Part shown: one piece after another, positions 8,110 to 11,410 of the stretch | Position numbering within the stretch: the stretch's first letter is position 1 | Layout: each line of letters opens with the position of its first letter | Origin: a virus | Length of the DNA stretch: 36,416 nucleotides | UHGV virus genome: UHGV-1512937 | Reading direction: 5' to 3' (one strand) | The notes under the pieces: model-generated | Told to the model about the DNA's origin: nothing | Seen by the model: the letters and a program-made list of their open reading frames with translations, nothing else | Database searches by the model: none | Position numbers and translations under genes: made by a program

Positions 8110-8298
8110 TTATGCCGCATTTGACGTGGGTTTTAATCCCAGCTTTACGGCAATTTCATGGGCTTTGCCGTAACGAGCTTTGGTCTGTCCATTGAGAACA
8201 CGATAGACCTCATTGCGGCTGTAGCCGTGTTCTTCGGCCCAGCGGGTAAACGTGATACCACGCTGACGGAAGAGAGTTTTAACTTGTTCGGAAGTCAT
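8110..8298 (-). CDS. Ner/Cro-like small DNA-binding regulator, first gene of the early operon
   Basis: 62 aa; HTH-like GYSRNEVYRVLNGQTKARYGKAHEIAVKLGL; AAGGAG 7 nt upstream; divergent from the repressor gene, as ner is from c in Mu. Confidence 0.55.
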   Translation of the reverse strand: MTSEQVKTLFRQRGITFTRWAEEHGYSRNEVYRVLNGQTKARYGKAHEIAVKLGLKPTSNAA

Positions 8299-8384
8299 TG
8301 TTGTCTCCTTTGTTGATGCAATGATGTTTGTTTTATATGTGATAGATTATGAGAACCATTGTTCTCATTGTCAATGAGGTTTAT
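8299..8384. promoter_or_regulatory. divergent early/repressor control region with a 6-4-6 inverted repeat (GAGAAC CATT GTTCTC, 8351-8366); candidate operator
   Basis: AT-rich 86-bp interval between the Ner-like gene and the preferred repressor start; inverted repeat read directly from the sequence. No promoter hexamers were matched. Confidence 0.35.
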
Positions 8385-8810
8385 GTGAATTTTGATTCTC
8401 TTTGCGCGTCGCGGTTCAAAGCTGAGCGTTCGCGGTTATCACTCAAGCAGGCTGAAGTAGCAGCCCTTTGTGGCGTTTCAAGAGAAATGTGGGGGAAATA
8501 TGAACGAGGGGTTGCAGTTCCCGGAGGTGAGTTACTTGCAGCCTTTGCAAGAATTGGGGCCAACGTACAGTTCATTCTTACTGGGGAATCATCAGGTATA
8601 ACTTTATCACGTGATGAAATGGAGTTACTTCAGCACTACCGGCAAGCACCGTTACAAGTCAAAGGTTCAGTTTTGTCGGCATTGACGACTGGCTCCTCCA
8701 GAGAACGGGCGGAACAGGTTATTCATGGAGATGTTCTGGGGAATGTTATCAAAGGTAACGTAACCATAGGAACAGGTGGAATAATGAACAAAAATACAAA
8801 GAGAAAATGA
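8385..8810 (+). CDS. XRE-family HTH repressor (putative prophage lysogeny repressor)
   Basis: HTH LSLKQAEVAALCGVSREMWGKYERG near the N-terminus; GTG at 8385 has GAGG 5 nt upstream, while the in-frame ATG at 8349 lacks an RBS; divergent from the early operon. Confidence 0.6.
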   Translation: MNFDSLCASRFKAERSRLSLKQAEVAALCGVSREMWGKYERGVAVPGGELLAAFARIGANVQFILTGESSGITLSRDEMELLQHYRQAPLQVKGSVLSALTTGSSRERAEQVIHGDVLGNVIKGNVTIGTGGIMNKNTKRK

Positions 8811-9793
8811 GTAAAGAGAAGCAAACAGTTAACGGAGATGTGGGTAACGTTGTCAGCGGTGATGTTACCATTCATAACTATTCTGCTGACATACTTCCCT
8901 CTGCCCAGCAACCAATTTCGTTGCTGCAAAAACGCGATTTACACAGATTGATGGATGAATTGGTTGATCTGGGGGAAAGTAAGCGCGAACTATGGATGAC
9001 GATCCACACGAAACTTAATACCAAAACAGTTAATGAAATGACTGCGGCTGATTATCATGGTGCGGTTGAGATCCTCCAGAGATATGCACAACAGATCCAG
9101 AATATGAAGGACTGTAATCTTCTGGTCAGCAAAATAATGGTGCTTACTGACCCTAGGTATCGTCTTGACCGTGACAGATACTGTCTGAAGCATTTCGGTA
9201 CAACCCATCTTAAAGGCCTGGACAAAGAGCAGTTGCAGGCTGTGTTTGGTTATTTTGATGATCTGCTGAATATTCGTGATGAGAGTAAAACTCTATCACC
9301 TCCATCGGACAGCGGGGCAAAATCAGTCGCGACTGTACCAACCAGAAGCCGGAAGCCTCATGTAGTAGTGTTGGGGGGAGCGTTAGTTCTTGTCGCAATA
9401 TTTTTCGTGGGAATGATTGTGTTCGCTGGTAAATGGGGAAATGCTAAAGCAGTAGCATCTACTGAAACCAGCGTTTTTAACATTAAAACCAACGACAAAA
9501 TAATAGAAGATTCCATCCCAGCATTACGCAGCATGTTTCCAGGGTTAAATAAGTACTCAGATGATTTCCATTCGGTTTCAAGCTACAAGCAAAAATCGGG
9601 CTGGCATACCCTTAAATTCACGGTGTCTACACAGGCAATAATACCTGAATCTTATGGTGTTAAAGGGAAAACTTGTTACATCAACATAAACCCCGATGGT
9701 CGTTATGCCCGTGTTTTGACCGCCCCATGTAGAGCTCTATTACTTGACCAACAAAACACTCCAGATAGTAAATATCGTTATATTTTGAAATAG
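8807..9793 (+). CDS. bitopic membrane protein of unknown function (accessory 'moron' gene A)
   Basis: 328 aa; ATG overlaps the repressor stop (ATGA at 8807-8810); single predicted TM helix (HVVVLGGALVLVAIFFVGMIVFAG) separating a ~185 aa N-terminal domain from a ~120 aa C-terminal domain; visibly AT-richer than flanking phage genes. Confidence 0.6.
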   Translation: MSKEKQTVNGDVGNVVSGDVTIHNYSADILPSAQQPISLLQKRDLHRLMDELVDLGESKRELWMTIHTKLNTKTVNEMTAADYHGAVEILQRYAQQIQNMKDCNLLVSKIMVLTDPRYRLDRDRYCLKHFGTTHLKGLDKEQLQAVFGYFDDLLNIRDESKTLSPPSDSGAKSVATVPTRSRKPHVVVLGGALVLVAIFFVGMIVFAGKWGNAKAVASTETSVFNIKTNDKIIEDSIPALRSMFPGLNKYSDDFHSVSSYKQKSGWHTLKFTVSTQAIIPESYGVKGKTCYININPDGRYARVLTAPCRALLLDQQNTPDSKYRYILK

Positions 9794-9813
9794 AAAATAA
9801 CTGCGAGGCTATT

Positions 9814-10425
9814 ATGGGGCTAATTAAACGATATAGAACAGATTATCCGAACCAAGTACATCAACTTTCTGTTGCTGTTTCAAAGCATTATTATGCGGGA
9901 GTTGATGGATTGCTTAAGTACCAGAAAAAACCATTTGATATAAAACTTAGCAATGCAAGTAAAACTGGAAAAGATCATTTACTAGTCTATTCGTTACGCG
10001 ATCACTACAGTGGTTTGTTTTATATAGAATTGGCATTTCTTTCTACACCACAACCTATAACAGCTTTTTTGGGAAGGGCATGGAGGCCAAAGGAAGATAA
10101 CGTGTTACAGGGTCTTCCTGATATGCTGATGATCCCCAAAACTGTAGAAGATGAGTTCCCTAACGTATGTAATGCCGTTTATAACCAAGGAGTTGATCTT
10201 TTAAAAGTAACCAGCGGTTTTCAGAGTGGAGGGCTTATCGCCATACGAGCGGTAGAGGAAGATCTTAAATTCTACACAAATACTCCTATAGCACGAGTTC
10301 GTGAGGTTGCGGTTAAAACATGCAGATACAATGCTAATGATATCGCCCGAACCAATAAAGAAACAAAGCAAGAGATGTGGTTACGAAACGTCGGTCAGAT
10401 AGATATACCTTCTCCAGATTTTTGA
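9814..10425 (+). CDS. soluble protein of unknown function (accessory 'moron' gene B)
   Basis: 203 aa ORF 20 nt downstream of gene A on the same strand; AT-rich; no recognisable motif. Confidence 0.55.
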   Translation: MGLIKRYRTDYPNQVHQLSVAVSKHYYAGVDGLLKYQKKPFDIKLSNASKTGKDHLLVYSLRDHYSGLFYIELAFLSTPQPITAFLGRAWRPKEDNVLQGLPDMLMIPKTVEDEFPNVCNAVYNQGVDLLKVTSGFQSGGLIAIRAVEEDLKFYTNTPIARVREVAVKTCRYNANDIARTNKETKQEMWLRNVGQIDIPSPDF

Positions 10426-10687
10426 AACCTGAAATCACGGTGTCGACGGTTCATTCTGACGCATCATTTATTCTCGTCAGTTGCCTCATATTCGTGCGTG
10501 CTAGGAAACATCGGCCAGAATATGTCTGGCATGGCGGCGTTTACAACCAATCCATGGAGCGATGGGGAATGTCTGCATTTTCATAATCTGTAACCCTTTT
10601 ATAATTATAAAAAATATGGCAGGCTAGTCTGGTCTCGCGAGACTGACTGAACCTCGGTCGGCTCACAGTGCATTCCTGTGGGGCGAT

Positions 10688-10719
10688 GACCAGCCCGGAG
10701 TTCGGGTACCGGGCTGGTC
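10688..10719. other. perfect 11-bp-stem hairpin (GACCAGCCCGG / CCGGGCTGGTC, 10-nt loop); candidate terminator or structured RNA
   Basis: Inverted repeat read directly from the sequence, followed by GTTCTTTC; lies in a ~400-bp non-coding gap; a 12-bp palindrome GTCTCGCGAGAC sits at 10632-10643. Confidence 0.4.
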
Positions 10720-10834: not shown

Positions 10835-11410
10835 ATGGGAACGTATTACACACTTGATTCCGCTAGTCGTCTGCCTTCGCCTTGTCATGTAATTACCGGA
10901 AAATACGAGCCTGAAATGCCAGAACTGGCCGCTTTTCTTCATCAGATGTATCCCAATGGCCTTTCGAGTCACGGGTATAACTATCTCTATAACCCCGGCC
11001 CTAAAATGGAAGATGACAGTGGAATCAGCAGAAGTCTGCTGGTCGGTCTGGTGTTTGAGTTAGTTCGCCGTAGCCATTTTCCTGATAAACCTTCCCGCTA
11101 TCAGTCACTGTTTGCCTGTCAGCATCTGAGTGAAGTCAGGAAGTTCAGGGAATTACTGGCTGATGAGAGAGGCGAAGACGAAATAAGAACGGCACCGATA
11201 TATGAAGTCATCACAAATGAGCAGGTGCATCGCGGAGATATGAGGTTATTGAACAGTGATTGCCCGGTGCTGGAACTGTATCACCGTGCTTGGCTTTACT
11301 GGTCGGGTGAAGCAGCCCCAGTTAAGACTGGTGAGGACGAACCGTTCTGGGAACTGCTGATTCCGCTTCCAGTATTCGTTGGTCGAAGGATAACTGAATC
11401 GCAGGATTAG
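10835..11410 (+). CDS. hypothetical protein
   Basis: 191 aa ORF with AAGGA upstream of the ATG; its 3' end overlaps a convergent minus-strand ORF by 89 bp. Confidence 0.4.
   Translation: MGTYYTLDSASRLPSPCHVITGKYEPEMPELAAFLHQMYPNGLSSHGYNYLYNPGPKMEDDSGISRSLLVGLVFELVRRSHFPDKPSRYQSLFACQHLSEVRKFRELLADERGEDEIRTAPIYEVITNEQVHRGDMRLLNSDCPVLELYHRAWLYWSGEAAPVKTGEDEPFWELLIPLPVFVGRRITESQD

Follow-up and report, generated by a model that had tools for sequence, protein, structure and literature searches.

In the UHGV virus genome UHGV-1512937, a stretch of 36,416 nucleotides whose full length is called the window here, the gene of an XRE-family repressor (plus strand, 8349..8810) runs directly into the gene of a membrane protein (plus strand, 8807..9793; hereafter the partner), and a short Gly/Val-rich segment in the C-terminal tail of the first product recurs at the N-terminus of the second. 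Why should two neighboring genes carry the same peptide on both sides of their junction? In our judgment, it is reasonably likely that the two segments are cognate copies of a strand-forming, homotypic docking motif of ~20 amino acids, rich in Gly, Asn, Val, Ile, and Gln, which joins the halves of a split repressor and couples repression to the membrane-anchored partner.

Matching motifs at a gene junction

Repressor residues R120-I140 (RAEQVIHGDVLGNVIKGNVTI) align with partner residues K3-I22 (KEKQTVNGDV-GNVVSGDVTI) with a local BLOSUM62 score of 55 and a single gap of one residue. This score was reached by just 1 of 2000 shuffles of the whole partner, and when shuffling was confined to the two Gly/Val/Asn-rich segments themselves, the segment score was reached in 2 of 20000 trials. 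Thus, composition alone cannot account for the match. The initial annotation, made from the letters of this DNA only, had allowed that the likeness might be no better than that expected of short Gly/Val-rich segments; a chance match of this kind is rejected by the composition-matched shuffles together with the co-variation described below.

The repressor-side copy comprises Q123-G144 (QVIHGDVLGNVIKGNVTIGTGG; plus strand, 8715..8780), and the partner-side copy comprises Q6-Y25 (QTVNGDVGNVVSGDVTIHNY; plus strand, 8822..8881). As had been proposed, the downstream protein opens with the motif, which is preceded only by MSKEK. For the repressor, the location had been recognized correctly, but the protein does not end there: nine residues still follow, IMNKNTKRK (plus strand, 8781..8807), which form a basic C-terminal end. 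No third copy of the motif was detected in a six-frame scan of the window. The two genes overlap in an ATGA stop/start (plus strand, 8807..8810), and the gaps between repressor and partner genes in related loci are typically -4 to +35 nucleotides, which suggests that the two genes are co-transcribed and that their translation is probably coupled.

The motif is the most conserved segment in both protein families. Among repressor homologs with the same tail type (type A, n = 10), identity to the residue found in the window is 54% in the helix-turn-helix (HTH) domain, 69% in the linker, 90% in the motif, and 94% in the basic end. For the partner, 22 homologs were found in Enterobacterales. In 21 of these homologs (from Escherichia, Salmonella, Morganella, Yersinia, and Serratia), which are otherwise 44–80% identical, residues G10, G13, N14, V15, V16, S17, G18, V20, I22, and Y25 are invariant. 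A Lys/Arg cluster closes nearly all motif-bearing repressor tails, whatever their motif type; such an end might serve as a solubilizing gatekeeper, a degron, or a contact with lipid or DNA.

Similarity of the underlying DNA had been noted as well, and the two copies indeed align at the nucleotide level (score 28 vs. 14.2 +/- 2.2 for shuffles). An internal duplication spanning the gene junction had been offered as one explanation of this similarity; a recent event of this kind finds no support in the codons. Where the two copies have the same residue, they also use the same codon in 5 of 11 cases in the window (3.8 expected), and in 84 of 187 cases when 19 loci are pooled (72.9 expected, P = 0.057). 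Recent DNA duplication or gene conversion was therefore rejected, as synonymous sites are randomized at the level of codon usage. Because codon agreement is no higher than codon usage predicts, the DNA likeness is best understood as incidental to selection acting on the peptide. It is plausible that a one-piece repressor once underwent fission together with an ancient duplication.

Two further ideas were rejected. Known repeat folds (hexapeptide, pentapeptide, and bactofilin) gave no Pfam match at E <= 0.01. A programmed -1 frameshift fusing both open reading frames (ORFs) was discarded: the open part of the partner frame begins only at 8759, and inspection of the A-rich stretch 8787-8806 by eye revealed no canonical X XXY YYZ heptamer.

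Tails and N-termini across related loci

Related loci (37 genomic and 75 viral) were collected with the repressor alignment, and each repressor tail was compared with the N-terminus of the next gene. The more distant repressor homologs have quite different C-terminal tails, and the tail type is mirrored by the next gene locus by locus, each locus with its own motif type. Such tail/N-terminus pairs are found in Izhakiella (ISVSGKGNRVAGRDFNENKK and STGGQNRVAGRDFNENK), Pectobacterium (QIFNGDISGQFAGNQIIN and QEFNGTAQGQFSSRDIIN), and Francisella (QKFHGNTIGQVVDGDIKN and QLFQHSQIGQVAAGDIIN), as well as in loci L069 (QIFNGNIDGQVSAENIYNI and QHFNHTVGQVAANNIYNI), L078 (GKGHRFALGDYHE and GQEHRIALGDYYE), and L094 (AAGGVQVGYVGGSV and GSGGVQVGKVDGDV). 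The pair is also present in cultured phages, namely BcepMu (gp17 QEQVFHGSVGQAVKVEGN, gp18 KQEFNKPVGQAIQAGEAN), Ps59 (gp17/gp18), and KS10 (gp13/gp12).

Over 47 non-redundant pairs, the cognate N-terminus is the top-scoring partner of the tail in 19, and the summed cognate score is 1482, compared with 880 +/- 39 in 20000 random re-pairings. The co-variation is still significant inside the two main motif classes (P < 2e-5). In the 19 strong non-redundant pairs, the aligned region averages 19.4 amino acids with 52% within-pair identity. We also defined motif-like tails independently of their neighbors, using a composition scale derived from the published BASS motifs of amyloid signaling. Among 60 non-redundant relatives, a matching neighbor accompanies 19 of the 22 tails with BASS-like composition versus 4 of the 38 other tails (Fisher P = 5e-9).

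E. coli hosts both type A modules (that of the window) and type B modules (L121, an integrase-type prophage), and the presence of different motif types in the same host species argues against a single common host factor that reads the motif. At loci with motifs of the GNRVAGRDY type (L010, L011, L055, L057, L058, L062, L064, L066, and L121), the motifs are nearly interchangeable between prophages, so cross-talk between co-resident prophages through the tails is conceivable.

Beyond the N-terminal motif, which is their only common part, the partners differ widely in architecture: some combine an Flk_N domain with a tail anchor, some a zinc ribbon with two transmembrane segments, some are small proteins with two transmembrane segments, and a few are short and soluble. 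Most motif-bearing partners also contain membrane segments. Judged from these comparisons, the motif appears to behave as a portable adaptor. In L010, L055, L062, and L025, the partner is a protein of ~120–140 amino acids with a CxxC…CxxC zinc ribbon and two transmembrane segments in place of the Flk_N-like domain. In another set of loci (L032, L035, L106, L109, L111, L005, and L015), the repressor has a helical C-terminal domain (…NVVELIRRVA) and the partner encoded next begins with an amphipathic helix (MEDKKQKLVSLVREAA), its G-rich motif appearing only further in. That the helical repressor domain might mirror the N-terminal helix of the partner was considered and dropped, since the likeness is slight, lacks statistical support, and shows no cognate specificity (P from 0.015 to 0.8).

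A proposed split repressor and its one-piece relatives

The partner of the window, a protein of 328 amino acids that matches phrog_10002 over its full length, contains just one hydrophobic segment, residues 186-206 (plus strand, 9362..9424; Kyte-Doolittle 2.92), which AlphaFold2 models as a helix at 187-206; the initial annotation was right to call it a membrane protein. The basic sequence RSRKPH on the N-terminal side of this helix suggests, by the positive-inside rule, an N-in topology, and the partner is predicted to be a bitopic inner-membrane protein with its C-terminus outside. Between the motif and the membrane lies a putatively cytoplasmic helical domain of the Flk_N/ORF6C-like type (residues 35-160; plus strand, 8909..9286), and beyond the membrane a presumably periplasmic alpha/beta domain (residues 222-328; plus strand, 9470..9790).

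In an AlphaFold2 monomer model built with the family alignment, residues 1-31 are unstructured (predicted local distance difference test, pLDDT, about 40), whereas the helical domain is confident over residues 35-105 (pLDDT about 90) and the C-terminal domain, with two conserved cysteines, over residues 222-328 (pLDDT about 93). Since this confidently modeled C-terminal domain has no recognizable relative among solved structures, it may represent a new periplasmic sensor fold. A domain related to it was also seen in L050, behind a different N-terminal motif.

The helical domain links the partner to Flk. The Flk family model (NCBIfam PRK10715 equivalog) matches residues 19-147 with E = 1.6e-11, and BLASTP against Flk of E. 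coli K-12 gave E = 1e-5 over residues 28-152, but the family-model score of 44.1 bits falls short of the curated cut-off of 353 bits for a full-length equivalog match. Precomputed Pfam annotation places PF27202 (Flk_N) on homologs of the partner; a local Pfam scan of the window partner itself gave no match. By these criteria, the partner shares the Flk_N domain but is not an Flk ortholog. Flk likewise has a cytoplasmic N-terminus, the homologous helical domain, and a membrane anchor toward the C-terminus. Unlike the partner, its N-terminus is Pro/Gly/Gln-rich without the strand motif, it lacks a periplasmic domain, and it belongs to the flagellar system rather than a prophage. A profile of diverse partners also retrieved relatives annotated as ORF6C, and BFVD returned an ORF6C protein too. 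All 44 further family representatives inspected, from a search of 1.84 billion proteins, have a variable G-rich N-terminal motif and the helical domain, usually with a C-terminal anchor.

The same profile search retrieved proteins of ~263 amino acids in which an XRE-type HTH, a G-rich motif (GVSFSGENNGNVIGVINGGTIHQINT), and the same helical domain are joined in one chain without a transmembrane segment. These fused proteins occupy the position of the Mu c repressor, beside genes for Ner-like proteins, MuA-type transposases, MuB-like ATPases, and Gam. When the partner family was compared with them using hhalign, the match (96.1%, E = 3e-9) paired partner residues 8-150 with residues 102-270 of the fused proteins, the alignment beginning inside the motif. 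In AlphaFold2 models of both the partner and a fused protein, the motif is the only low-confidence segment between well-folded domains; a weak beta-hairpin appears at the motif of the fused protein. This is the behavior that would be expected of a segment that folds on assembly. Because the fused relatives contain the same helical domain and sit at the same position, the two genes of the window can be viewed as the two halves of a one-piece repressor, with the motif present on both.

One-piece c repressors (e.g., P0157 and P0173, on metagenomic Mu-like contigs) resemble the locus of the window in their position divergent from the Ner, transposase, and MuB-like ATPase genes, in their class of HTH, and in having a G-rich motif directly before the homologous helical domain. 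In contrast, they are single polypeptides with one motif copy and neither a transmembrane helix nor a periplasmic domain, whereas the window has two polypeptides with a copy on each. Two variants were also seen: P0155 is a one-piece HTH-motif-ORF6C-like protein with an extra C-terminal QQFNAPIIGGNFAGRDINIGKEKT tail, and P0165 carries a tandem of two different G-rich motifs N-terminally. Together they hint that such motifs may link more than two proteins into chains.

Based on these data, we propose that the c-type repressor of this prophage is made in two pieces. The first would be the XRE DNA-binding protein, with the motif on a flexible C-terminal tail. The second, encoded by the overlapping next gene, would present the same motif at its cytoplasmic N-terminus, followed by the Flk_N/ORF6C-like helical domain, one transmembrane helix, and the periplasmic domain. 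The two motifs may pair as beta-strands, either in a beta-zipper or in a small cross-beta assembly, and such pairing would rebuild non-covalently the order HTH, motif, and helical domain that related Mu-like phages have in one chain. The assembled complex would have a ToxR/CadC-like topology, with the DNA-binding domain inside and the sensor domain outside, so that the activity of the repressor, and hence the maintenance or induction of the prophage, could be coupled to the membrane-anchored partner, which probably supplies oligomerization and signal input. Homology to the fused proteins favors a co-repressor or sensor over an anti-repressor. That the two segments form a shared interaction module had already been suggested by the initial annotation, and the suggestion gains from the conservation of the motif, its concerted change in both genes, the joint presence or absence of tails and matching partners, and the single-chain relatives. 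The accompanying label of a downstream effector is not established: the partner looks more like a repressor subunit or sensor, given the homology of its cytoplasmic domain to that at the C-terminal end of single-chain repressors.

Several known systems resemble parts of this arrangement. ToxR, CadC, and TcpP are membrane-bound transcription regulators with, like the proposed complex, a cytoplasmic DNA-binding domain, one transmembrane helix, and a periplasmic domain; Mlc is held at the membrane by PtsG, as the repressor could be by the partner in an alternative view of the complex. The window differs from all of these in that its DNA-binding part is a separate polypeptide attached via a duplicated short motif, and no homology to them was found with Pfam. 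The repressor c of phage Mu has a C-terminal tail that acts as a regulatory element and is inactivated in a ClpXP-dependent way, and it belongs, like the repressor of the window, to a transposable phage. However, its DNA-binding domain is not of the XRE type and it is not known to have a matching motif in a partner.

Some observations do not sit easily with a repressor divided in two. Three of the 22 motif-like tails have no matching neighbor, although one of these lies at a contig end. For tails of the enterobacterial GNRVAGRDY subtype, the cognate partner seldom ranks as the sole best match, which places specificity at the level of the motif type. Partners with a zinc ribbon or only two transmembrane segments in a small protein do not fit the idea of a missing C-terminal domain, and could be effectors. 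In addition, some partners have the G-rich motif though their repressor has a helical C-terminal domain and no tail, so that the motif must have a role of its own in the partner, probably self-association. Physical binding, pairing as beta-strands, the N-in/C-out topology, and a partner that helps or antagonizes repression are all proposals drawn from sequence comparison. The XRE protein itself is assigned as the lysogeny repressor from its position, its family, and the annotation in BcepMu and KS10.

The features that suggest docking also recall amyloid signaling, and a true amyloid switch at this locus is a possibility that we hold with some reserve. Here, the N-terminal motifs of a triggered and clustered membrane protein would act as a cross-beta template that converts the repressor tails, leading to their cooperative, self-propagating inactivation or relocation and thus to prophage induction or another all-or-none response. 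Such a switch would follow the logic of HET-s/NWD2 and Bab/Agp, the protein converted being a transcription factor. The genes are paired just as they are for fungal and bacterial amyloid motifs (HET-s/NWD2; the Bell/NLR pairs of BASS1-10; E. coli Bab/Agp, BASS11, which is an abortive-infection system), in which a motif of ~20 amino acids is C-terminal in the upstream protein and N-terminal in the product of the downstream neighbor. As in the family of the window (motif length 19.4 amino acids and within-pair identity 52%, as above), those pairs are ~50% identical and rich in G, N, Q, V, and I, comprise many motif families matched within the locus, and occur in E. coli prophages, where amyloid signaling is already at work in defense islands. 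The motif is, moreover, unstructured in monomer models.

We compared the motifs with 175 published BASS instances (PMC8086366, supplement). Their composition tracks that of the BASS motifs (log-enrichment r = 0.91; G 14%; N, V, I, Q, and H enriched; L, P, W, and C depleted), and the best pairwise scores to BASS instances stand at 35.8, compared with 31.2 for composition-matched shuffles (P = 6e-7) and 26.5 for natural segments. A G-phi-Q-phi-G core, which is the signature of RHIM/PP/BASS3, occurs in several pairs: GGVQVG in both proteins of L094, GVVQIG and SIQIG in L088, and ITQVG and IIQVA in KS10. On the other hand, hidden Markov models (HMMs) of BASS1-6 and BASS9, which are small-sample models built here rather than those of the original authors, reached at most 12.4 bits on tails and N-termini; a score of >= 8 bits was obtained for 5% of real segments versus 0.6% of shuffled and 0.5% of natural control segments, a weak enrichment. 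Membership in BASS1-6 or BASS9 was thus not found with these models. BASS7, 8, and 10 had too few instances in this set for a model, and BASS11 lay outside the comparison.

Further points count against an amyloid mechanism. Pfam, PADLOC, and NCBIfam find only an XRE-type HTH in one protein and an Flk_N/ORF6C-like domain in the other, with no sign of an NLR/STAND receptor, a Bell/HeLo-type executioner, or an enzyme effector. The one-piece homologs have just one motif each, located in a linker, where it needs no partner for templating. The Lys/Arg cluster after the repressor motif and the Asp inside it might also disfavor fibril growth. Unlike the described pairs, that of the window includes neither an immune receptor (NLR/STAND, TPR, or other) nor a Bell/HeLo, TIR, or CHAT effector; its C-terminal motif belongs to a DNA-binding repressor and its N-terminal motif to a membrane-anchored, Flk_N/ORF6C-like protein. 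In the papers on amyloid signaling motifs that were consulted, HTH proteins, repressors, and transcription are not mentioned. It may be asked, tentatively, whether a prophage transmembrane sensor signals to a master repressor by prion-like templating between matching terminal motifs. If true, this would be the first amyloid signaling that controls a transcription factor and the lysis-lysogeny switch, and it would give Mu-like phages, in whose XRE-type repressors no LexA-like self-cleaving domain is seen here, a route to induction.

It is unlikely, in our view, that the pair is an antitoxin/effector module of the Rex or abortive-infection type, in which a latent toxic or exclusion membrane effector self-assembles via the motif and the repressor tail is a capping decoy; loss or titration of the repressor, at induction or upon attack by another phage, would then free the effector. 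The gene order and overlap recall type II toxin-antitoxin operons, in which an XRE protein with an unstructured C-terminal tail comes first, and several partner types are small, with two transmembrane segments and no recognizable regulatory domain. The motif also occurs in partners whose repressor lacks it, and self-association would then probably be its primary role. In addition, the module shares the interval from the immunity region to the lysis genes with other accessory genes, and its co-expression with the repressor recalls rexAB of phage lambda. The lambda operon cI-rexA-rexB, whose membrane protein genes are transcribed together with the repressor in lysogens, is indeed similar to the window in this respect, but RexA and RexB are not known to have a motif in common with cI. 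This explanation fits poorly with the homology between the cytoplasmic domain of the partner and the C-terminal domain of bona fide one-piece repressors without a membrane segment, and a large, well-folded periplasmic domain is more typical of a sensor. Scans of the partner with Pfam, PADLOC, and NCBIfam detected no toxin or defense family, and the PADLOC defense models also gave no match for the next two genes.

Finally, it is very improbable that the two proteins make no direct contact and either both display a tag for a third party (a host protease, a chaperone, or a membrane-targeting factor) or carry a chance, low-complexity, or neutral duplication remnant: the basic tail ends do recall C-terminal degrons (MuA and the Mu repressor are ClpX substrates) and the motif is short and compositionally biased, but the match exceeds that of composition-matched shuffles, the motif types differ radically among phages of the same host species and yet match within each locus, and an invariant peptide over randomized synonymous sites leaves no place for a neutral remnant.

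Prophage setting and the lysogeny switch

The query span 8300-9850 of the window is 100% identical to a prophage within E. coli chromosomes, which adjoins ybjD at its insertion site, and the window as a whole is a BcepMu-like transposable prophage of E. coli with a BcepMu-type layout. An early operon on the minus strand encodes a Ner-like HTH protein, a winged-HTH protein, a DUF3102 protein, a DDE transposase, an ExeA/MuB-like ATPase, Gam, and Mor. On the plus strand, the XRE-family gene (8349-8810) and the ORF of 328 amino acids (8807-9793) are followed by two small genes and then by holin, lysis, and head genes.

The Ner-like gene (minus strand, 8110-8298) is divergent from the repressor gene. 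Between the two lie a near-consensus sigma-70 early leftward promoter, TTGACA-17-CATAAT (minus strand, 8374->8346; 11/12 consensus matches), and an inverted repeat (8342-8356/8361-8375) that overlaps this promoter and, from its position, is a candidate repressor operator; both fall within 8342..8375. The divergent early operon, with the promoter and inverted repeat in between, places the XRE gene in the c-repressor position, and its homologs in BcepMu and KS10 are annotated or treated as the lysogeny repressor.

As the longest ORF, the repressor gene encodes 153 amino acids. The real start is probably GTG at 8385, giving 141 amino acids, because homologs begin with MNFDSL and the ATG at 8349 falls inside the leftward promoter and inverted repeat (the promoter overlaps 8349-8384). 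Pfam recognizes an HTH DNA-binding domain at residues 22-68 (plus strand, 8412..8552; PF13560, HTH_31, E = 4.7e-7; PF01381, HTH_3, E = 8.5e-5), and PHROG assigns the protein as a transcriptional regulator/repressor. By sequence, the nearest solved structure to this domain is the N-domain of the P22 C2 repressor (E = 9e-5).

About 446 of 573 matching E. coli genomes have in common with the window only a promoter segment of 51 nucleotides (8300-8351). One sibling prophage was inspected, that of the ST131 E. coli strain 4224 (L119). It has the same early region and the same 51-nucleotide promoter segment, followed by an XRE repressor of 118 amino acids without a tail; it lacks a membrane partner gene and has a Dam methylase gene instead. 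The two prophages thus represent immunity-module mosaicism on one phage backbone.

Two accessory genes are located between the immunity module and the holin gene of the window. The first (9814-10425) is an ORF of 203 amino acids with no match in Pfam, PHROGs, NCBIfam, or PADLOC, and the second (10835-11410) encodes a DUF2441 protein (phrog_5663). The two are separated by a stretch with a promoter-like site (10578-10605) and a hairpin that resembles a terminator (10699-10715).

Little is understood of how Mu-like and BcepMu-like prophages exit lysogeny, as their repressors do not appear to use the self-cleavage route of lambda. The split, membrane-tethered repressor proposed here offers a concrete physical link between a repressor and a membrane protein with a periplasmic domain. 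In the literature on amyloid signaling, BcepMu-like phages and their repressor, ORF6C, and Flk, we came across no account of the pair. Neighboring genes with matching terminal motifs are known; what is new is their setting in a lysogeny switch, where they are widespread, the pair being conserved in Burkholderia and Pseudomonas phages (BcepMu, KS10, and Ps59) and in prophages of E. coli, Serratia, Pectobacterium, Francisella, Pasteurellaceae, and others. The finding would extend the principle of matching terminal motifs on neighboring genes from amyloid-based immune signaling to the control of transcription, and it would provide natural, swappable docking peptides of ~20 residues with specificity at the level of the motif type. 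An amyloid-like pairing would add a new role to those played by functional amyloids; a simple beta-zipper would still be a new way to build a split, membrane-tethered repressor.

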